Of a stretch of DNA of 64,000 bases, positions 5,034 to 14,424 are shown piece by piece. Under the pieces are notes generated by a model. It did not search any database. It saw nothing but the letters and a program-made list of their open reading frames with translations, and was not told the DNA's origin. The stretch is from Terriglobia bacterium. Its GTDB lineage: Bacteria > Acidobacteriota > UBA6911. Made by a program: the position numbers and the translations under genes. The stretch spans positions 133,746 to 197,745 of the forward strand of contig CAVTZY010000023.1 of NCBI GenBank assembly GCA_963739235.1. Reading direction: 5' to 3'. Each line of letters begins with the position of its first letter. Positions within the stretch are counted from its first letter, which is position 1.

Positions 5034-6074
5034 ATGAGCCTCATAACAAAAAAGGACGCCTCGATTCTCGGTGGGATAGGACCGTCGGTTTTGAGCAACT
5101 GGCGAAAGCGCGATCTGGAGTTCCGATCCTGTATTCGCCCAACAGCCTCCGGTGAGCGCATCGACAAAGAGAGTTTTTGTAGCTACCTGAGTGAGAGGAA
5201 GGGGTTCAAGCTTCTTACGCTTAAAGAGATGGCAAGTGCCATAAAAGTAATAGGAAGAGTTGGGAAACAGATCAGCAAGTGTCGGCCATGCATCGATGAT
5301 CCCTTGCCGCCATGGCCTTCGGATCTGTTTGATCAAATTGCGGCACCTTTCGAGTCTTGCCTTGAAGAGCGCTCACGCATAGGTCGAGAATTGGCCCAAG
5401 TTACTGGACGATTGCTGGCACCATTTGGAGAGCCGCTGATGCAAGTCGATTCGGCTCTCCTGCGCTGCCTGTCGAACGACAGTGAGAACCAGTTTTCGAA
5501 CTGGTTGGCTTACCTTCTTGGTCAGATGAAAAATGCGGACATCCTGAAATTGTTTGGCCTAACAGCATTCTTGACTGACACGGAAAAGAACGACCGGCCA
5601 AAAAAGGTGTGTCGTGAATCCTGGGTTGCATCGGGTCATGAGAATCAGACCGGTCGCCTCGACATCTTTGTCGAATGCACACCTATGGTGCATATCTGCA
5701 TCGAAACGAAACGTGGCGAGGCGCAATCCGCCGACACAAGCAAACAACGGGGATACTTCAGATCGCTACGCCGTCAGGGGATCACCCTTTTTTGCTTTCT
5801 CCTGGTGACTCATTCAAGCGAACCTGTAGTTGATAATTTCGATGTTATTCTTTGGCGAGATCTGACTCTGCGATTTCGACGCTGGGTCATTTCAGTATTG
5901 AGGAAGCGTTCGGGTCCGCACATATACTTAGCCTTTGTTCTTGGATTTGTAGCTGCCGTTGAACGAGGGATTCTGGGCTTATCGCTGGGCACGGACACTG
6001 GTGTTCCTTCCGTCGAAACAATCGCCTATCTTACCAAGTTCGTGAATGTAGAAAATGTAGAAGAGGATGCCTGA
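5034..6074 (+). CDS. hypothetical protein with an N-terminal HTH-like segment and a C-terminal PD-(D/E)XK nuclease-like core
   Basis: 346-aa ORF in a visibly AT-richer block. ITKKDASILGGIGPSVLSNWRKR resembles an XRE/MerR-type HTH. GRLDIFVE...VHICIETKRGE fits a D...E-x-K nuclease motif. Confidence 0.6.
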   Translation: MSLITKKDASILGGIGPSVLSNWRKRDLEFRSCIRPTASGERIDKESFCSYLSERKGFKLLTLKEMASAIKVIGRVGKQISKCRPCIDDPLPPWPSDLFDQIAAPFESCLEERSRIGRELAQVTGRLLAPFGEPLMQVDSALLRCLSNDSENQFSNWLAYLLGQMKNADILKLFGLTAFLTDTEKNDRPKKVCRESWVASGHENQTGRLDIFVECTPMVHICIETKRGEAQSADTSKQRGYFRSLRRQGITLFCFLLVTHSSEPVVDNFDVILWRDLTLRFRRWVISVLRKRSGPHIYLAFVLGFVAAVERGILGLSLGTDTGVPSVETIAYLTKFVNVENVEEDA

Positions 6075-6630
6075 TATGACTGAAGACGAATCCATCGATC
6101 CGAAGAGTACCTCTCCTCAGATCGACCTGCTACATGTAGCATTGCCTCAATATGGAGTTGCGGCCCCTGCCATGCACCTTGTCCAAAGCATCGTTTCGCG
6201 CAAACTCAAGGCAGTCCTTGATGCACAACGCGATCACATTAAGGTTGCCTGGAAACTCGAGGAAGCTCTGGGAGAGATAATGCGTAGTGTCTTTCCCGCT
6301 TTCCCGGAGGATGACTATGAGTATGACCCAGCTGACATCCACGTTAGGGTTTGGCTGGGTAATCCTCAATACGCAACTCTGTGGCTGTTTCTCCGTTTTC
6401 CACGCGCAAGCGAACGAGAGAAGCGCATATCCATAAATGTCGGTTTGGAAGTTTCACAGAAGTACCGTCGCGCTGAACTCGTGGCAAAAGTAGGTCGACA
6501 CCCAAACCTCTTCGAAGAAGAATGGGATGGCTACAGTGTGGGTCTTAGTAGAGAACTAAAATCTATTGACTCGATTGAAGAGGAAGCGAAGGCGTTACTC
6601 GGAGATTACATTGCCATTTTCGAAACATAA
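6067..6630 (+). CDS. hypothetical protein (187 aa), translationally coupled to 5034..6074
   Basis: The ATG overlaps the upstream stop by 8 nt (ATGCCTGA). Composition matches the neighbouring genes. No family recognised. Confidence 0.55.
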   Translation: MPDMTEDESIDPKSTSPQIDLLHVALPQYGVAAPAMHLVQSIVSRKLKAVLDAQRDHIKVAWKLEEALGEIMRSVFPAFPEDDYEYDPADIHVRVWLGNPQYATLWLFLRFPRASEREKRISINVGLEVSQKYRRAELVAKVGRHPNLFEEEWDGYSVGLSRELKSIDSIEEEAKALLGDYIAIFET

Positions 6631-6672
6631 CTGAAATTGTGCGCAACTGCAACACCGGGAGTGAACTGAATC

Positions 6673-6960
6673 ATGGCAGACATATCAGGCAATTGGATTT
6701 GTTCCGGACATATGTATAGGTTATGGCAACATGGGAAGTATTTTGAATGGTCGACGGATCGCCATGGCGCGGCTAAACGACAAGTGGGCTTAGGTTCGTT
6801 TGAGAGCGACAACGAAGTGAGAGCCTTTTGGAACTTCCACAACGGCAAGCAAGGAGAGATCAAAGATGCCAAAGGAAAGCTCGTCTTTGAGGGTGCCACG
6901 TGTGTCAAGATCGAGTGGTCAGACAAAGAAACATTCCTTCGTCCCAAGCAAATTGAGTAG
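6673..6960 (+). CDS. hypothetical small protein (95 aa)
   Basis: Third co-directional ORF of the AT-rich cassette. No family recognised. Confidence 0.45.
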   Translation: MADISGNWICSGHMYRLWQHGKYFEWSTDRHGAAKRQVGLGSFESDNEVRAFWNFHNGKQGEIKDAKGKLVFEGATCVKIEWSDKETFLRPKQIE

Positions 6961-6974
6961 AGATTTCTCCCTAG

Positions 6975-8445
6975 TCAGTGACTTCGATGCCCAAGGGCCC
7001 TGACTATATCAACCATTCCCGACATGTCCTGCGAACAATACCTCTCAAGTTGATCCATGATCGTGACGCGTTCCGAATCTGGAAGTTCCGCGAATGCCAT
7101 GTCGAGGAACCTCAGACTGGCAGTACTTCCGTTGGCTATTTCCAGATCATCATAGCTGCGCCCGGTCAAAGCAGGCAGGACCGCCTTTAAAGAGGCAGTC
7201 CCAAGCTGATCCGGGTGGTAGTAATGAAATGCTCGGAACGGCACCAGCAGATCAACGAAACGCGGAATCAGCTTTCGCACCCAACTGGAATACCCTGGGC
7301 AGTGGTCTGCACATTCTGCCAAAATCCGAATCTCGAATGGTGCATTATAGGCGACGATGCTGCCCCTCTCGCCCAGTTCGGCTGTTAGGCGCGATAGAAT
7401 CTCGGGCCTCGGGTCTTTCGCACCGTCTGCCAGAAATCCGGCGTGTTCGACTTCGGCGCCGGGTGAGCGGAGTGTGCACAGAGAGTACTGAAACGTCACC
7501 TGCTGATATGGACGCACGAGGTCATACACCGGAATCGCCGTCATGAACGTTTCGAAGTCCAGGAAGTGGAGAGGATACTCGAGACGACGCAGGAAACTGG
7601 CTAGCACCTCCTTGTCGACGTGAGGCTGTCCTGATTTTTCGCACTCCACTTGGATTCGCTGGTTGTCCGTTAACGGAAAGTCATCGGGGATGTCCTTGAG
7701 TCTTAGGATGCCTTGTCCCATTAGTTTCATTTTGCTGCCACCGCCACGGTACAGGGAAAAAACATTCCGTTCCGGAAGAAAAGACCAGCATGAGTCCTTC
7801 AACGGGCAGGGATAAGGAAGGTTGCAGTGCCCGCCGACTTCTGCCTTTGGGCAGCTTTTCAAGCGGATAATATCGCCCATTTTTCCCACTTGCTCCGGGA
7901 TTCCGGGCAAGATCGAAGCAATCTCTCGTGTGATGTCCTGCCTCTTGAAGAGTTCCTTGGCGCTGATGTCCCCATGCCGAACATAGGAATTGTCGATGTG
8001 CATCAGGAAACAGCGGCGGATACGGATTCCCGCCCCTTCGTAAACGTACTTTTGAAACGCCACATCCTGCAAATGTATGTCCTTCACCTCGGTGGTGCTC
8101 TTCACTTCGATCAGATCCCACGCGCCGGCGGGACCCGGGTCGAACACATCTGCGCGCAAAAGCGCGGCCGTGCGTGAAGCTGGTTTCGAATATCGGTCTC
8201 CTCTCTAGCAACGCGGCTTTTGACCTGGCGGTCACTTCTTCGAAGTCTTCTGTCCAATTAATCATGATTCCGCCGGGGAACAGGCTGGTCGCCAGTTCGC
8301 CCACGAGCTGACCCTGGTCAAAAATTGCCTGCGTCGAGGGATCTGGCTCAGGAATCTGTCGCTTGTCGTTGTAATGCGTCCAGAGCAGCTTCGGGCATTG
8401 AAGGCCTGCGATGAACTTACTCTTGGAAAGGAATGGTTCAGTCAT
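6975..8445 (-). pseudogene. DUF2779-type protein (Cas4/RecB-like PD-(D/E)XK nuclease with Cys cluster plus RNase-H-like exonuclease domain); one frame break near 8160
   Basis: The N-terminal part lies in ORF 7681..8502 (likely start ATG 8445: MTEPFLSKSKFIAGLQCPKLLW...SFTHGRAF). The rest lies in ORF 6975..8159 (RADVFDPGPAGAWDLIEVKSTTEVK; CNLPYPCPLKDSCW; LHFLDFETF...YNAPFE). The ATG overlaps the AAA+ gene stop by 8 nt. Confidence 0.7.
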
Positions 8446-10738
8446 AGCGCGAGGCCCTCCTCCGTATTTCGTACCCGGGTTCGATGGTTGTTTCTCCACC
8501 AAACAGAACCGGTGATTTTCGGGCTTCCCTGTATCTATCGAGTGTCTCGATGACGCGTTCGATCCCCAATTTTCCTTCCTCGCCCAGCATTATTGCCCGA
8601 ACTGACGCCTGGCGGCACACAAAATCTATTTCTCGAAGGTGCATGGGCGTACTCTCGACCAGATCGATGATGCTTTCCTGCAAGTCATGATTGGTTCCCA
8701 GGTGCTTCTCCCATTGCCGAATTTGGAGGTCCTCGGGCGGAAAGTTGATCTCCAGCAGTTGGTGGAATTCCGGAAGGAGCAGGAAGTTGCCCCGACACGC
8801 GGTCACGACAAAAACAAAGCCGCGGCAATCCCGCAGCTTGTTCAGGAAGCCGCGCAAAAGCAGCGGCGCATCCTCGCTGCCTTTTATTTTCGCCATCGTA
8901 GGGCGGTATGTAGAGAACTGCTCATCGTAATCGACGAAAAGTGAGGCGGAATGGTGCCCTGGATTTTCCGCAAACGCATATTCCAGCGGGCTGACTTCCA
9001 CCTGGCCCAGCGGATCGAGGAATCTACTTGCGCCGTCGCAGGAAAGGACTTCCGAGAGGGAGTACCTTCTTATTCTAAGATCGCAGGCGCAGGCCGTGGC
9101 CTCAACTGCCGCAACTCCGACGGCGAGGTCCGCAGTTGTTACCATGACGCTCAGACCGTAATTCTGGACGCGGAGCCGTTGCCATGCAGCGGCGAGACCA
9201 TTGAATTGCTGGCGTTCGGCGGCCCTCAGCGGTAATTCATCAATTTTCAAAGTAGGCGCGTATGACTCACCCAGCTTGTACTTGTCAAAGGCGCTAACCG
9301 ACTGATAGTCCGCAATCTGCACAAGGTCGCGCATGTTGACGACGATGCCACCCGAGCCGTTCCTTCCAATTGCTTCGCTAATGGCGGCGAACAGAGTATT
9401 TTTGATCAAGCCGCCGTTGAAATGGTAGTTCCTGGCCAAGCGTGAAAGGTCTACATCTGGAGCAAGCTTCACCTTGTCCGGGACAAGCTCCTGCCAAATC
9501 TTCCTGCGCAAGGTCTCATCAGGAAATACGAATGGCACCTTCATCGTGATCCTGCGCTCCAGGGAGGGATCGAGTTGAAACGGCTTGTTTGTCGCCAGGA
9601 TCGTCATGCAGCTGGCCTTCTCGATTTCGATAAGAAGGATCCTGCTCATCTCCTGCCCTTCTCCGAATATGTCGTCACACTCATCAAAAAAGACGATTCC
9701 ATCGTGAAGACGCGCCTCTCGAAAGATGTACTTGATGACATCATCAATCTCATGCCTCCGTTCGACGCTTTTCAGACTCACCGTAAAGATGATCTTGTTT
9801 AGGGCGTTCGCGAGCGCCTTTGCAAGCATCGTCTTGCCAGTGCCCGACGGACCGTAGAACAGCATCACCAGCCCGGTTCCATATCCATAGAATTCGTCAA
9901 TTCCAAGCGCAATCCGGCGGGTCCCACCGCTTGCAAAACTCGTGACAAGTCCAACGACATCCTTTTTAAGCTGATCCGGCATAATGACCTGTGCCAGCGA
10001 TACGGTGCTTTTTTCGCGCAGGATGTTTTTGAGCGCAGAATCGTAGAAACAATTGTCGCCGAGGATGTATCGAACAATGCGCTCGTGCAGGTAGGCGGAT
10101 TGGGTCAGGATATTGGTCGTCTCGTCGATTCTGCCAAGCAATATGATGATTTCCTCCCGGATCAGCCCGCCCTCGACACTGAAGTACCTGCGACTTGCGA
10201 TTTGGTCCCGATAATCGTTACAAAGGATGGCGAGAAGGCTCCCAACCGTGAGGGATTCACGGTTTTCATCCGCATCGTAGGCTCTAGCCAAGGCACTCTT
10301 GGAGAAGGCCTTCTTAAATGTCGTGCTGGTATTGACCACAAACAGAAGCAAAACGATAAGCCGTTCAAACTCCTTCAATGAGTAGGTCTCGCAAAGCTGA
10401 CTGAAAAGCAGGTGAATTCCCCGCGCCAGCGAATTCTTTTCCCGAGCACGATTTGTGGCAACGATGCCTTCCAGACGAGCCTCAAGTGATTTTTGTTGCG
10501 GTCCGTTACTGAGCATGGAGGATCTCTCGTACTGCCATGCAGGTTCATCGGGCCCTGGCTCTGCAGTTCCAATGCTCCTTGAATCGGCGAGTTCCAGGCG
10601 CAGCAGCACCTCCTGCTCCAAAGCCTGCAGGTGATCCAGGTTGTCCTGAAAAGAGTCCTGGATTTGGCCTCCTGCCGAAGGGTGTGGAGTCGAAAACGCT
10701 GCGGTCTCTCGTGAGATGAATCGGGCTCTGTCATCCAT
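8438..10738 (-). CDS. large AAA+ ATPase (classic clade), with an N-terminal helical extension, an active D1 and a degenerate D2
   Basis: Walker A FYGPSGTGKTMLAKALA, Walker B IVFFDECDD, sensor-1 and Arg residues ILATNKPFQLDPSLERRI. The C-terminal half is AAA-like but lacks a P-loop. GGGAGG lies 6 nt before the ATG. Confidence 0.85.
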   Translation of the reverse strand: MDDRARFISRETAAFSTPHPSAGGQIQDSFQDNLDHLQALEQEVLLRLELADSRSIGTAEPGPDEPAWQYERSSMLSNGPQQKSLEARLEGIVATNRAREKNSLARGIHLLFSQLCETYSLKEFERLIVLLLFVVNTSTTFKKAFSKSALARAYDADENRESLTVGSLLAILCNDYRDQIASRRYFSVEGGLIREEIIILLGRIDETTNILTQSAYLHERIVRYILGDNCFYDSALKNILREKSTVSLAQVIMPDQLKKDVVGLVTSFASGGTRRIALGIDEFYGYGTGLVMLFYGPSGTGKTMLAKALANALNKIIFTVSLKSVERRHEIDDVIKYIFREARLHDGIVFFDECDDIFGEGQEMSRILLIEIEKASCMTILATNKPFQLDPSLERRITMKVPFVFPDETLRRKIWQELVPDKVKLAPDVDLSRLARNYHFNGGLIKNTLFAAISEAIGRNGSGGIVVNMRDLVQIADYQSVSAFDKYKLGESYAPTLKIDELPLRAAERQQFNGLAAAWQRLRVQNYGLSVMVTTADLAVGVAAVEATACACDLRIRRYSLSEVLSCDGASRFLDPLGQVEVSPLEYAFAENPGHHSASLFVDYDEQFSTYRPTMAKIKGSEDAPLLLRGFLNKLRDCRGFVFVVTACRGNFLLLPEFHQLLEINFPPEDLQIRQWEKHLGTNHDLQESIIDLVESTPMHLREIDFVCRQASVRAIMLGEEGKLGIERVIETLDRYREARKSPVLFGGETTIEPGYEIRRRASRYD

Positions 10739-10753
10739 GTTTGCCTCCCAGTA

Positions 10754-11320
10754 TCAGGATCTGCTCCCCAGCGGTTCGACAAGGTCGGCCAAGCCGAATT
10801 TGACGGCCTCGTCTGGCGAGAGCCATGTGTCCACGTCCCGTAAGAGCGTCTTCTCCAGTTCCTCCCTTGACGCGAGGTTTGTGTGCCTCAGGTAATGGTC
10901 CACGATCCGGGCATGCATAAGATCCTCCTCCTTACGGCCCGCAATCAGCTGGCTGTAGTTGCCAACCGTCCATGCCAGGTACCTGTGCGAAAGGACCGAC
11001 GTCCTGGGAGTGATTACCCTGTGACCTTTGCGGCCGGTCATAAAAACCAGCAAACCCATCGAAGCAATCATGCCAATGCCGGTCGTGTAGACCGGGATTC
11101 GAGACCATTCGATAAGGTCGATAATGGCAAATCCCGCCGTGCATGAACCGCCGACAGAGTGGATGATGAGCTGGATTTGGGCCACGTCACCCTTGATGTT
11201 GTACTCGATGATTTCCCTGCAGACGCTTTCCGCCGCGCCTGAATTGATGTCTCCAGACAGGAAAATGATCCCGTACTCTTTCAGACCGGTTTCCTTGTCC
11301 TCGTTTCCGTTGTTTTTCAT
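10754..11320 (-). CDS. ClpP-family (S14) serine protease-like protein
   Basis: ORF 10754..11572. Preferred start is ATG 11320 (MKNNGNED), preceded by GGAGGA. Aligns by eye to ClpP: HSVGGSCTAGFAIID, GMIASMG (Ser), VLSHRY (His), DVDTWLSPDEAVKFGLAD (Asp). Confidence 0.8.
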   Translation of the reverse strand: MKNNGNEDKETGLKEYGIIFLSGDINSGAAESVCREIIEYNIKGDVAQIQLIIHSVGGSCTAGFAIIDLIEWSRIPVYTTGIGMIASMGLLVFMTGRKGHRVITPRTSVLSHRYLAWTVGNYSQLIAGRKEEDLMHARIVDHYLRHTNLASREELEKTLLRDVDTWLSPDEAVKFGLADLVEPLGSRS

Positions 11321-11439
11321 GCTTTCCTCCATTAGGCTACAGAGCGTTCCTTGCAGGAAGTGCCTGTTCCGTGCTGCTATAGATACAGAGGGACTGTTGC
11401 ATTTTTGGCTACATCCCTGAAAAAAAGTGGGAGGTCGTA

Positions 11440-12471
11440 ATGCGCGGCAAGCTATTGGTCCGGTTTCACAGGGCCCTGCAGCTGATCGGCAGAGCACAAG
11501 GCGCCTCGATTCGGGATTTGACGAGCGAACTGGGAATCGACCGCACTTCCGTGTACCGGCTGTTCCGAACAATTGAAGACATGGGATTTCCGCTGTATGA
11601 GGACAAGACGCCGCTCGAAAGGGTCAAGCGGTGGAAGTTCCTTGACTCAGGTTCCGGGAGGCGGCGAGCCGGCGTAGACGAATTGAGGGTTTCGCGATCA
11701 GAATTGATCGCCCTCACCTTCATCCGGGGATATGCGCGTCTCTACAGAGGGACGGCCCTTGAGGACGACGTCAGTGCTGCGTTCGACAAGATCTGCAGTT
11801 CGCTGTCCCCCCAACTCGCGACACAGCTCAAGCGGGTCCAGTCTCTTTTTATACCGTCGGTCAAATTCGCCAAGGACTACTCTGGCAAAGACGACGTCAT
11901 CGACTCGCTGACCGAAGCGATCCTCCAGCAGAGGACTTGCCTCATCCAGTATCACTCGTTCTCGAATGGCCGGCGCAAGAAATTCTCCATAGATCCGCTT
12001 CACTTCTTTGAGCACAGCGGCGGGTTGTACCTCTTCGCCAACGCCACGGACTTCGGGGACATACGCACTCTGGCGGTGGAGCGAATCGAGGAGATCGAGA
12101 TTACAGAAACTGCGTTCACTTACCCGGAAGAATTCGACCCAGAGAAGTGGCTGGAGGAGGCCTTTACCATTTTTGGGGATGACCAGTTCGAAGCACGCAT
12201 TTGGTTTTCTGCTGATCAAGCCAAGTACATCAAGGAGAGAACGTGGGCAAAGCAGCAAAGAATCCTTGACCACATGGATGGTTCCGTCATCCTCGAAATG
12301 ACCACTTCCGGGCGTTGGGACGTAATGCGCTGGGTCCTGGGTTTTGGGTCGCAGGCGGAAATACTGGGACCCGAAGATCTTCGCGAGGAAACCTCCTTGG
12401 TATTGCAGGCCGCCAGTAGCCGTTATGCTGGAGGGAGCGCCGCGCAAGCGCCGCAATCTCCTCATGGCTAA
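11440..12471 (+). CDS. WYL-domain transcriptional regulator (HTH-WYL-WCX architecture)
   Basis: N-terminal HTH IRDLTSELGIDRTSVYRLFRTIEDMG. WYL-like core CLIQYHSFSNGRRKKFSIDPLHFFEHSGGLYLFA...IRTLAVERI. Divergent from the ClpP-like operon, with a 119-bp intergenic region. Confidence 0.85.
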   Translation: MRGKLLVRFHRALQLIGRAQGASIRDLTSELGIDRTSVYRLFRTIEDMGFPLYEDKTPLERVKRWKFLDSGSGRRRAGVDELRVSRSELIALTFIRGYARLYRGTALEDDVSAAFDKICSSLSPQLATQLKRVQSLFIPSVKFAKDYSGKDDVIDSLTEAILQQRTCLIQYHSFSNGRRKKFSIDPLHFFEHSGGLYLFANATDFGDIRTLAVERIEEIEITETAFTYPEEFDPEKWLEEAFTIFGDDQFEARIWFSADQAKYIKERTWAKQQRILDHMDGSVILEMTTSGRWDVMRWVLGFGSQAEILGPEDLREETSLVLQAASSRYAGGSAAQAPQSPHG

Positions 12472-12718: not shown

Positions 12719-13471
12719 ATGGTATTTGATCCGAATGTCCTTCGATCCTTCCTGCATCAAGAGAGGATTGCCACGCTCCCGGAGCTGAAGCAAGCTTTGG
12801 GAAGCATGGCTACCATGACCGTGTTTCGAAAGCTCAAGGCGTTAGGCTACCGCACGAGCTATTCGCACCGCGGGAGATACTACACGCTGGTGAACATTCC
12901 CCGGTTCGACGAGCGAGGTCTCTGGACTTGCCGCGCCGTATGGTTTTCGCGCGACGGCAGCCTGCTCACCACCGCCCGGCGGTTTGTGAACGATTCCGAT
13001 GCTGGGCTTACCGCCGGGGAATTGCAGGCGCTACTGAATGTCGAGGTCAAGGAATCGCTTCTGGTGCTGTACCGTCGAGGGCAAATTGCCCGCGAGGAAA
13101 TCGGCGGCGTCCTTGTGCACTTTTCTACTGAGCCTGGGGTACGGCGCGAGCAATGGCTGCGCCGCCAGAGTCCGGCGGGTGCGCTGGAGGTGGGCGACTC
13201 GGCGGCGGGCGAAGGGCTGGCGCCGGAAATGAAGGCCGCGATCATTCTGTTTTTCAGCTTGCTGGATGAGAAACAGAGGCGGGTGTATGCGGGCTTGGAG
13301 GCCCAGAAGCTCGGATACGGCGGCGATATCAAGATTGCGGACTTTCTGGGGTTGGACGTGCACACAGTGTCGCGTGGGCGCCGGGAACTCTTTGGAGACC
13401 GTGTCCAGCGGGAAAGGATTCGCCGTCAGGGCGGTGGGCGCCCGGCTGCGGAAAAAAAACGCCGGAAGTGA
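12719..13471 (+). CDS. ISAzo13-family transposase OrfA (N-terminal DNA-binding part)
   Basis: 250-aa ORF ending GGGRPAAEKKRRK* just after an A8 run (13452..13459). Contains LDEKQRRVYAGLEAQKLGYGGDIKIADFLGLDVHTVSRGRRE. Confidence 0.8.
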   Translation: MVFDPNVLRSFLHQERIATLPELKQALGSMATMTVFRKLKALGYRTSYSHRGRYYTLVNIPRFDERGLWTCRAVWFSRDGSLLTTARRFVNDSDAGLTAGELQALLNVEVKESLLVLYRRGQIAREEIGGVLVHFSTEPGVRREQWLRRQSPAGALEVGDSAAGEGLAPEMKAAIILFFSLLDEKQRRVYAGLEAQKLGYGGDIKIADFLGLDVHTVSRGRRELFGDRVQRERIRRQGGGRPAAEKKRRK

Positions 13472-14424
13472 TCGCATGCATTTCGGACCTGCTCAAACAC
13501 GAAACGGCTGGCGATCCGATGAAGGGTCTGAAGTGGACCCGAAGGACAACCAGGAAAATCGCTCGAGAACTGCGTCGGCTGCAGATCCGTGTTAGTGCCA
13601 ACACGGTGCGCCGGTTGTTGAAGCGGATGGGGTTCTCCTTGCGCGTGAACCACAAGAGACTGGAGTCAGGGAACAAGAATCCGCCGCCCCGCCGGGTACG
13701 AAACCAGCAGTTTTTATACATCGGCCGGAAAAGGGAGGAGTTCTCCTCCAACGGAAAGCCTGTCATCAGCGTGGACGCGAAAAAGAAGGAGATGGTCGGG
13801 GCCTTCAAGAATCCCGGGGTGTCGTGGCAACGCGAACCGCAGATCGTCAACGACCACGACTTCCGCAGCGATGCCGAGGGGATGGCGATTCCCTATGGCA
13901 TCTACGATACGCGGACCAATCATGGTTTCGTGGTGGTCGGGACCAGCACCGAAACGCCCGCCTTCGCAGTGGACGCAATCGTTTCCTGGTGGAAAAGTCG
14001 GGGCGGCAGTATCTATCCTGATGCAGATGAACTCCTGATCTTGGCAGACTGTGGCGGCGGCAACAGCGCCCGTGCGCGTGGATGGAAGTATCACCTGCAA
14101 CACCGGTTCTGCAATCCTTACGGGCTGAAGGTGACCGTCTGTCATTATCCGCCTGGCGCATCAAAATGGAATCCGATCGAGCACCGCCTGTTTTCCCAGA
14201 TTAGCAAGAACTGGGCAGGCAAGCCGCTGGAAAGCTATGAGACTGTGATCAAGTATATTCACTCGACTACTACCTCGGGCGGATTGAAGGTCAACGCCTG
14301 GTTGTCACTGAAGCGTTATGAAAAGGGCGAAGAGATCTCCAACGTAGAGATGAAGCGGCTCATGCTTGCCGGCCACAAGACGCTACCGGCATGGAATTAC
14401 ACGTTGACGCCGAGCAGAATGTGA
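13468..14424 (+). CDS. ISAzo13-family DDE transposase catalytic part (OrfB; open in the -1 frame from 13459)
   Basis: LLKHETAGDPMKGLKWT...ISVDAKKKE...LILADCGGGNSAR...WNPIEHRLFS, typical of ISAzo13-like transposases. The stop lies inside the right IR. Confidence 0.85.
   Translation: MIACISDLLKHETAGDPMKGLKWTRRTTRKIARELRRLQIRVSANTVRRLLKRMGFSLRVNHKRLESGNKNPPPRRVRNQQFLYIGRKREEFSSNGKPVISVDAKKKEMVGAFKNPGVSWQREPQIVNDHDFRSDAEGMAIPYGIYDTRTNHGFVVVGTSTETPAFAVDAIVSWWKSRGGSIYPDADELLILADCGGGNSARARGWKYHLQHRFCNPYGLKVTVCHYPPGASKWNPIEHRLFSQISKNWAGKPLESYETVIKYIHSTTTSGGLKVNAWLSLKRYEKGEEISNVEMKRLMLAGHKTLPAWNYTLTPSRM

Follow-up and report, generated by a model that had tools for sequence, protein, structure and literature searches.

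Can a ClpP-family peptidase be served by an ATPase from outside its usual circle of partners, and if so, under which control and in response to what? The question is raised by a locus at positions 6975-12471 of a 64,000-nt stretch of DNA (referred to throughout as the window) from a Terriglobia bacterium (contig CAVTZY010000023.1). The list of open reading frames (ORFs) resolves the locus into three minus-strand genes, encoding a ClpP-like peptidase, a tandem-AAA ATPase and a DUF2779 nuclease, and one divergent plus-strand gene encoding a WYL-domain regulator. It is evident from related loci that the module is conserved and that chance juxtaposition is excluded; the switch is usually the WYL regulator, and the nuclease is variable cargo. 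The best explanation, which we consider probable on balance, is that of a conserved, horizontally mobile stress cassette, triggered by single-stranded DNA (ssDNA), which combines a two-component protease of its own with a nuclease arm.

Organization of the locus

The ORFs of the locus span 6975-8159, 7681-8502, 8438-10738 and 10754-11572 on the minus strand and 11440-12471 on the plus strand. They resolve into the following features.

11440..12471, plus strand: WYL regulator of 343 aa with winged helix-turn-helix (wHTH), WYL and WCX domains, DriD/PafBC-like (Pfam, family profile)
11395..11413, minus strand: palindromic operator of 19 bp, TGTAGCCAAAAATGCAACA, overlapping the -35 position of the ClpP operon promoter
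11380..11385, minus strand: -10-like hexamer TATCTA, 12 nt past the operator's proximal TGCA
10754..11320, minus strand: ClpP-family serine peptidase of 188 aa (ATG at 11320; alternative ATG at 11332)
8438..10738, minus strand: 766-aa ATPase with a PF22977 N-domain, AAA modules D1 and D2 and an LFG tail (Pfam, AlphaFold)
6975..8445, minus strand: DUF2779 nuclease gene, frame-broken (Pfam, orthologue comparison)

The ClpP-like stop codon TGA (10756-10754) and the ATPase start codon (ATG, 10738) are 15 nt apart, with GGGAGG in the gap, and the DUF2779 ATG overlaps the ATPase stop codon by 8 nt in ATGACTGA (8445-8438). The intergenic region shared with the WYL gene measures 119 bp when counted from the Shine-Dalgarno-backed ATG at 11320. 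All of this packing, which the original prediction had described, was confirmed on the sequence, and the ClpP-like, ATPase and DUF2779 genes are translationally coupled in the window.

Conservation, spread and cargo

The genomic context was sampled in 28 independent loci (given here with the prefix L), taken from genome contigs and from contigs retrieved by exact protein look-up. These look-ups replaced a metagenome scan with the ATPase alignment, whose patterns were too generic and which yielded about three true family loci. The ClpP-like gene lies immediately upstream of the ATPase gene in every one of the 28 loci. A reciprocal test from the peptidase side, on new long contigs, recovered the WYL gene, the ClpP-like gene and the ATPase gene with its winged-helix domain (WHD) in the same arrangement in two of two homologues. 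A WYL gene adjoins the pair in about 20 loci and DUF2779 is found in nine. With the first linkage constant, the second usual and the third variable, the invariant unit is the ClpP-like peptidase together with the ATPase. The three-gene operon that had been predicted therefore stands as far as the pair and, usually, its regulator are concerned, while DUF2779 is not a fixed third component. The wider description as a protease plus nuclease under ligand-sensing control was right in outline, although the fixed three-gene operon was not established.

At some loci DUF2779 is replaced, and at others joined, by other nuclease or repair cargo. The partners include PDDEXK_4 proteins (L002, L081, L084, L170 and L183), AddAB-like helicase-nuclease pairs (L007 and L087), a GIY-YIG-like protein, DprA, or nothing recognisable. 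Repair-type genes are found in the neighbourhoods as well, namely those for AddAB, a polymerase, SSB and DprA, together with UDG-like and photoproduct-lyase genes.

Carriers of the pair belong to Geobacteraceae, Desulfuromonadales, Desulfobacterales, Smithella, Bacteroidia, Dependentiae and metagenome bins, and include the cultured Geomobilimonas luticola JCM 17780 and Geobacter sp. OR-1. The peptidase has 509 close homologues, the top 120 of which are all at least 64% identical, and full-length relatives of the ATPase, of about 750 aa, number in the hundreds. The ATPase family is nevertheless rare, since a search of 1.84 billion representatives with its D2 module and tail retrieves no more than 108 clusters (50% identity). 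It is absent from 72,556 PLSDB plasmids, 50,697 GenBank phage records and IMG/VR; the sole PLSDB matches are Serratia Afp15 genes located between a tape-measure gene and DUF4255. Genes for capsid, portal, terminase, sheath, tube or baseplate proteins occur in none of the 28 neighbourhoods.

The copies differ in their integrity and in what has settled within them. A DnaA-like ATPase gene (Bac_DnaA, 4.3e-27) is inserted in the operon of two loci, in the gap between the WYL and ClpP-like genes in L002 (8492-9250) and between the ClpP-like and ATPase genes in L011 (2454-3161). Tn3 transposase and integrase genes lie between the WYL and ClpP-like genes of L088 (1886-7264). The WYL gene is in two pieces in L083 (3366-4362) and L184 (8903-12352), and the ATPase of the latter is shortened to 587 aa. 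Some contigs with split or truncated module genes look like long-read assemblies, in which indel errors are possible. Just downstream of the pair in L180 (12650-14226) lie genes for an RtcB RNA ligase and an RF-1-domain protein, resembling an RtcB/PrfH pair, which adjoin a type I restriction-modification (RM) specificity subunit, a DUF1016 gene and an integrase. Further, unrelated genomes share genes for ARPP-1, a PolIII-alpha-type polymerase of 1164 aa and an MBL-fold protein of 416 aa ahead of the cassette (clusters C17-C19; L087:1-6306, L010:1-2826 and L008:4179-5201).

The ClpP-like peptidase

The peptidase matches the Pfam family CLP_protease (PF00574, MEROPS S14) at 1.7e-31 and 109.9 bits against a cut-off of 20.2, and aligns over its full length with solved ClpPs (1.9e-18). 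This alignment bears out the catalytic triad proposed originally: Ser87 (GMIASMG), His112 (LSHRY) and Asp164 (DVDTWLS) correspond to S97, H122 and D171 of E. coli ClpP, and the triad is invariant in 21 sequences (20 family members and E. coli ClpP) and in 46 homologues. JGI and NCBI label the protein 'ATP-dependent Clp protease proteolytic subunit'.

Judged by its sequence, the peptidase is distinct from housekeeping ClpP. It falls below every NCBIfam ClpP equivalog cut-off, the best being PRK12553 with 100.7 against 228 bits, and TIGR00493 giving 78 against 308.6. About 18 N-terminal residues, corresponding to the axial loops, and six more are missing relative to E. coli ClpP, and the residues that form the IGF-docking pocket there (Y60, Y62, F82, I90, F112 and L114) have given way to Q, I, W, T, V and T. 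The AlphaFold monomer reached a predicted local distance difference test score (pLDDT) of 60 because the alignment is shallow, all of its sequences being at least 64% identical, and the model was set aside.

A phage head-maturation protease was considered and rejected. The peptidase scores 62.4 bits against the cut-off of 120 of the curated model NF045542, there are no head or packaging genes in the 28 neighbourhoods, and its ATPase partner is absent from the phage collections. The original prediction had set two settings against its own reading, a place in prophage head-maturation modules and membership of a known housekeeping complex. With no head genes nearby, no family member among the phage, viral and plasmid collections and profile scores below all NCBIfam ClpP cut-offs, neither was encountered.

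The tandem-AAA ATPase

In the 766-aa protein, Pfam recognises a WHD (PF22977, residues ~28-232, 2.6e-31) and a single AAA module (2.3e-19). Its AlphaFold model, with a pLDDT of 85.5, comprises a helical winged-helix N-domain (residues ~30-240), D1 (~245-485) and D2 (~490-745), and the top Foldseek matches are the tandem-ring ATPases p97, Cdc48, NVL and Rix7. D1 carries the full active-site set, with Walker A GPSGTGKT, Walker B DECD, sensor Asn384 and arginine fingers R395/R396; D2 has the AAA fold and is devoid of a P-loop, with no GK[ST]. The model and the motifs thus agree with the active classic AAA module, degenerate second module and N-terminal extension that had been read from the sequence.

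The closest characterised relatives are, by sequence, the Afp15/Pvc15 ATPases of extracellular contractile injection systems (eCIS). Afp15 itself bears PF22977, and its AAA module is 35% identical to that of the window ATPase. A Methanosarcina homologue with PF22977 and two AAA modules is located between an eCIS_core gene and a Pvc16_N gene, and aligns colinearly with the window ATPase at 8e-22 and module to module at 3e-30. Pvc15 is known to recognise N-terminal signal peptides and to unfold or load cargo (PMC9054023, PMC11495950).

The family carries an LFG motif near the C-terminus (residues 745-747), which lies in a disordered tail. Of 74 aligned members 73 have it, as does every complete copy among the loci. 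Complete members end in [VIL]-L-F-G at 0-20 residues from the C-terminus, and in the most divergent ones LFG is the very end of the protein. The tail was not found in eCIS ATPases. Its conservation suggests that LFG may dock to the remodelled pocket of the ClpP-like ring.

Comparable endings were seen in other proteins of this lineage. A second tandem-AAA ATPase directly downstream of the pair in L181 (12312-14531) ends in ...AIGF, and the PF22977 ATPases L092:2110-5181 and L009:165-2498 end in ...GIGFVPA and ...TMGFAA. These sequences hint that docking of C-terminal tails to ClpP-type rings could be more general in the tandem-AAA lineage.

The WYL regulator, its operator and the promoter

The regulator carries WYL (1.6e-13) and WCX (6e-17) domains together with a weak helix-turn-helix match in Pfam, and the PADLOC WYL model matches it at 7.7e-32. 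When the WYL-family profile was compared with known structures, DriD was the best match (9pfq, 8tp8 and 7u02; 1e-13 to 1e-11), PafBC came next (1e-7), and BrxR and CapW gave no match at E<=1. Orthologues of the regulator are 39-73% identical, and in most related loci their genes are divergent from the ClpP-like gene.

A conserved palindrome lies in the divergent region. The 19-bp operator has the consensus TGTnnC-N7-GnnACA, and its centre lies ~36 bp ahead of the start codon of the WYL gene. It is unique in the window even at 3 mismatches, with 0.08 matches expected. Identically placed exact matches were found in L010, L081/L082, L083 and L170, and another clade (Geobacter and Desulfobacterota loci) has TGTGACC-RAAAT-GTCACA, also given as TGACnnRAAATGWCA, in the same place. 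A palindromic site read by the product of a single gene implies a homodimer. The half-site geometry xGAC-N7-GTCx resembles the CGAC-N7-GTCG of DriD.

Exactly 12 nt past the proximal TGNC of the operator, TA is found at 19 of 25 operator sites and TAnnnT at eight. A sigma-70 scan found no -35/-10 promoter and no -35 hexamer in the intergenic region, and neither promoters nor terminators were predicted in the locus beyond the chance level, as would fit a promoter that depends on an activator. PafBC promoters follow tGTCgg-N10-tAnnnT and have no -35 (PMC8635444, PMC5656591), and at DriD promoters, where the -35 is missing too, a palindrome extends over its position and keeps a constant distance to the -10 (PMC13004042). 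The predicted spacing from operator to -10 equals that of PafBC promoters.

Moreover, the operator is not confined to the cassette. Four copies occur in L087, upstream of the genes for PolIII-alpha, an MBL-fold protein, ClpP and AddB, and three in L002, including those upstream of FtsA-like and SIR2 genes, with 0.17 expected in each case. In L007 an operator lies next to AddAB, and in L180 and L181, which have no adjacent WYL gene, it is still found upstream of ClpP. This spread to other genes makes the cassette the regulator-linked centre of a small regulon. Control of the module by the WYL protein through the conserved operator is supported by these sites; the kinship with DriD and PafBC suggests that the WYL domain may sense ssDNA, and the regulator would act by activation rather than repression.

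The DUF2779 nuclease and its frame break

The third gene of the operon matches DUF2779 (PF11074) at 2e-34, and its product carries the motifs DLIEVKS, a Cys cluster, LDFETF and AYNAPFE. Motifs, Pfam and the literature all uphold the earlier assignment of a Cas4/RecB-type motif with a Cys cluster and an RNase-H-like fold; a Cas4-like PD-(D/E)XK nuclease with an RNase-H-like 3'-5' exonuclease agrees with published descriptions (PMC13621843, PMC3985635).

The single frame break that had been noted near 8160 was mapped against intact orthologues as the loss of one GC unit (2 nt) from a (GC)n run at about 8152-8159 (…AFAR|ADV…). The orthologues of L083 and L170 (492 and 497 aa) read G-A-F-A-R-A-D-I/V across this position and are 67-78% identical on either side of it. 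The frame break would be either a recent inactivation or an assembly error, so that the nuclease arm of the window is either inactive or mis-assembled.

Relation to known systems

In its logic, the closest analogue is the neighbourhood of PafBC, the Pup-proteasome and Mpa in Actinobacteria, where a WYL gene likewise stands beside a self-compartmentalised protease and a classic-clade AAA ATPase. The likeness extends to promoters that have no -35 and a TGTC-type element 12 nt upstream of TAnnnT, and to a regulon with an AddAB-type helicase-nuclease and an error-prone-type C-family polymerase, as seen here in L087; the PafBC regulon includes adnAB and dnaE2. The differences are equally clear. The protease there is a 20S proteasome, whereas here it is a ClpP-family peptidase and there are no Pup, Dop or PafA genes; PafB and PafC form a heterodimer, whereas here the regulator is the product of a single gene; and the cassette is mobile and lies outside Actinobacteria. 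Further, the proteasome genes of mycobacteria are outside the control of PafBC (PMC5656591); in the cassette the operator sits on the protease operon itself.

Compared by sequence, the closest known proteins are DriD, Afp15/Pvc15 and ClpP. DriD of Caulobacter and DdaA of Moraxellaceae are WYL activators that are themselves activated by ssDNA and drive damage responses independently of LexA. Among solved structures DriD matches the regulator best; it has a palindromic xGAC-N7-GTCx site placed over a missing -35, and governs nucleases (bapE and recJ). The similarity is modest (profile E ~1e-13), the operator sequence differs, and, unlike here, the known regulons of DriD and DdaA include no ClpP/AAA pair.

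Afp15 and Pvc15, which act on protein clients, likewise begin with the winged-helix N-domain PF22977 and continue with two AAA modules of the classic clade. Their AAA modules are 33-35% identical to that of the window protein, with GYG-x-G before Walker A and PDE-LR-IW after the arginine fingers in common. However, D2 is the active and D1 the degenerate module in Pvc15 (PMC11495950), whereas here D1 is active and D2 is dead. The relatives also keep a K-Y-I-G pore loop and have no LFG tail, whereas here the loop has been lost and LFG added. The eCIS placement between the tape-measure gene and Afp16/Pvc16 was seen in none of the 28 loci; true eCIS contexts occur in L015 and L182.

The canonical ClpXP, ClpAP and ClpCP machines share with the pair an S14 Ser-His-Asp peptidase encoded beside an AAA+ partner, and a short hydrophobic-Gly motif on the ATPase as a plausible docking element. 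Their partner is of the Hsp100/ClpX clade with an internal IGF/IGL loop, whereas the ATPase here is of the classic clade (p97/Afp15-like) with a C-terminal LFG. Canonical ClpP has axial loops and an IGF pocket, whereas here the loops are absent, the pocket is altered and the scores fall below the equivalog thresholds.

Among defence systems, IetAS also pairs a classic-type AAA ATPase with a serine protease, and IetA-like models match the ATPase weakly in PADLOC. The IetAS protease is a subtilase, however, whereas the one here is of the ClpP family and no subtilase is encoded in the locus. The ATPase scores 49.3 bits against the cut-off of 510 of NF042959 (anti-phage ATPase), and further differences are its additional N and D2 domains, the control by a WYL protein and the nuclease cargo. 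BREX (with its Lon-like BrxL) and CBASS systems gated by BrxR or CapW resemble it in having a WYL gene divergent from an operon that encodes DNA-targeting components and a protease-like protein of the AAA type. BrxR and CapW act by repression, whereas the promoter here is of the activator type and BREX or CBASS genes are absent.

The searches for a described counterpart came back empty. PADLOC v2.0.0 returned only generic or weak IetA, TRIP13 and WYL matches and none to the ClpP-like protein, DUF2779 or the neighbouring ORFs; the PDB gave only generic ClpP, AAA and WYL matches and no solved structure of the combination; and a full-text literature search found no paper describing a module of ClpP, WHD-AAA and WYL. 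The earlier remark that the locus matches no named defence system thus holds, apart from the weak IetA-like matches. As it lacks defining traits of housekeeping ClpP, eCIS ATPase, IetAS and prohead protease, the cassette is not assigned to any named system. The combination is apparently undescribed, although it is built from known kinds of parts.

Proposed mechanism and alternative explanations

The explanation that we favour can be set out as a sequence of steps. A dimer of the DriD/PafBC-type WYL protein would bind the 19-bp palindrome that stands in for the -35 of the divergent promoter. Its WYL domain would bind a nucleic-acid signal, most likely ssDNA arising from breaks, stalled forks or replicating foreign DNA, and the signal-bound regulator would recruit RNA polymerase, so that the ClpP-like, ATPase and nuclease genes are transcribed. 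The triad-bearing, axial-loop-less peptidase and the Afp15/Pvc15-related ATPase would constitute a dedicated two-component protease, in which the ATPase probably docks by its C-terminal LFG, in the role of the IGF loops of ClpX, and its winged-helix N-domain probably selects the client proteins. The co-transcribed DUF2779 enzyme, or elsewhere AddAB or PDDEXK_4 proteins, would process DNA ends, and the net role would be a proteolytic and nucleolytic response to DNA stress or invading DNA. One task of the complex could be to remove or degrade DNA-bound proteins and so clear damaged or foreign DNA for the nuclease (DUF2779, AddAB or PDDEXK_4). The sequences show directly that the genes are conserved and coupled, and show the catalytic residues, the folds, and the operator with its promoter geometry and its regulon-like spread; the ssDNA trigger, activation in place of repression, the physical complex with its LFG docking, the substrates and the physiological benefit are proposed by inference. 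As for the benefit, damage tolerance is slightly more likely than not and immunity less likely but substantial, and the two may coincide. Kinship of the regulator, type of promoter and repair-type neighbours are pointing to a damage role.

A bolder form of this proposal can be held only tentatively. The pair may represent an unknown class of ATP-dependent protease, the first in which a ClpP-family barrel works with a classic-clade (p97-like) ring, docked by LFG. Within a mobile WYL regulon that senses ssDNA it would be the arm dedicated to proteolysis, a ClpP-based counterpart of the axis of PafBC and the Pup-proteasome.

Several findings weigh against the stress cassette as proposed. Pore loop 1 of D1 is short and non-aromatic, without the K-aromatic-hydrophobic-Gly pattern, the K-Y-I-G of eCIS relatives being gone, and D2 cannot bind ATP. 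With one element degenerate and the other dead, which is the chief weakness of the protease model, processive unfolding is doubtful, and without a canonical aromatic pore loop the simple picture of an unfoldase feeding ClpP becomes uncertain. The task of the ATPase may rather be to gate or activate the peptidase, or to bring it particular clients by way of the N-domain. The canonical IGF pocket is gone as well, its replaced residues being kept within the ClpP-like family, and PHROG head-maturation profiles match the peptidase (phrog_94, 1.2e-28) about as well as ClpP profiles do. WYL proteins can also be repressors, for example BrxR and CapW. Finally, the neighbourhoods contain defence-type genes (type I RM, GmrSD, SIR2, REase-ARP/ARPP-1, TOTE primase, and PLD with a kinase-helicase) and genes of mobile elements (integrases, a type IV secretion system coupling protein and ArdC).

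These neighbours lend themselves to two other explanations. The cassette could be a dedicated anti-phage or anti-plasmid defence, in which the WYL protein keeps the operon off until infection, and the protease, activated by the AAA protein, and the nuclease then destroy parts of the invader, or the host itself in an abortive infection. Precedents exist in the ATPase-protease pair IetAS and in WYL-gated BREX and CBASS, and the variable 'effector' (DUF2779, PDDEXK_4, AddAB-like or GIY-YIG-like) beside a constant core, the neighbouring RM, GmrSD, SIR2, REase-ARP/ARPP-1, TOTE and PLD genes, carriage on integrative and conjugative elements, the rare and patchy distribution (the 108 clusters), IetA-like PADLOC matches to the ATPase at 2.4e-15 and the disrupted components of several loci all fit such a role. 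The WYL activator DdaA, moreover, controls and co-regulates both damage and defence genes (PMC12392091). We nevertheless consider this explanation unlikely, if far from negligible. No PADLOC model matches the protease or the nuclease and no system is matched; in sequence the regulator belongs with the activators of damage responses and not with BrxR/CapW; the promoter geometry is of the activator type; the operator precedes AddAB and a PolIII-alpha-type polymerase, classic members of damage regulons; and some copies lie among ordinary genes without an effector. A regulator near DriD and PafBC, with its operator at AddAB and PolIII-alpha genes, makes a LexA-independent damage regulon as likely-looking as immunity, and the 'conflict system' of the original prediction was on these grounds not established.

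Alternatively, the cassette could serve the mobile element that carries it, by degrading restriction or repressor proteins of the host or by processing element DNA at transfer or establishment, with ClpXP-mediated restriction alleviation as a precedent. This appears improbable. Integrases, SSB and DprA-like genes near one copy, a TraG-like coupling protein and ArdC near another, Tn3 and integrase genes near a third, DUF3150, DUF2997 and SSB near a further one, and the DnaA-like insertions in L002 and L011 would agree with it; however, many copies lack recognisable element genes in the surrounding 8-10 kb, the plasmid, phage and IMG/VR collections contain no copy, and the operator is common to chromosomal repair-type genes. 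More improbable still is that the pair has no special stress role, being either an ordinary housekeeping paralogue of ClpP that works with an accessory chaperone or what is left of phage or eCIS morphogenesis, in the form of a prohead protease and an Afp15-like loader. The plain Clp annotation of the peptidase by JGI and NCBI, the PHROG head-maturation matches at 1e-28 and the relation of the ATPase to eCIS loaders would agree with such an origin. Against it stand the scores below all NCBIfam ClpP equivalog cut-offs and the head-maturation cut-off (62 against 120 bits), the rare and patchy occurrence, the almost constant linkage to a WYL gene or operator, the lack of any phage structural or eCIS gene in the 28 neighbourhoods and the absence of the family from phage and viral collections. 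The ssDNA-triggered stress cassette with its own protease and nuclease arm thus remains the explanation that we favour.

Flanking genes in the window

The edge of the cassette is marked by an ISAzo13-family transposase (12719-14424; DDE_Tnp_ISAZ013, 3.4e-113), which follows the WYL gene immediately downstream. It overlaps a 250-aa ORF ahead of it, and the two are probably one transposase in two frames. It is the only insertion sequence that adjoins the locus, which qualifies the 'IS-rich' surroundings described earlier. On the other side, two overlapping plus-strand ORFs at 5034-6630 (346 and 187 aa) are convergent with the operon. They had been taken for a neighbouring 'nuclease cassette'; the first of them has only a sub-threshold PDDEXK_4 match (0.0014), neither has a match in PADLOC, NCBIfam or PHROGs, and BLAST and hhalign comparisons with the PDDEXK_4 partners of other loci found no detectable relation, and they were rejected as a demonstrable part of the module. 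The G+C content falls to 0.509 at 6001-8000, the DUF2779 end of the operon, between flanks of 0.54-0.58, which is consistent with acquired DNA.

Significance

If the ClpP-like peptidase and the ATPase really do form a complex, ClpP would no longer be restricted, as the rule has it, to unfoldases of the Hsp100/ClpX type. A loader lineage of injection systems (Afp15/Pvc15) would then have been re-used for proteolysis, and a new docking motif and a new regulated protease would be added to those known. The cassette is also a compact candidate for heterologous assays with phages, plasmids and DNA damage.

The promoter finding carries the DriD/PafBC design, in which an operator takes the place of the -35, into further phyla, among them Desulfobacterota, Bacteroidota and Dependentiae. 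It suggests that DNA-stress regulons run by WYL proteins, independently of LexA, exist in these poorly studied anaerobes.

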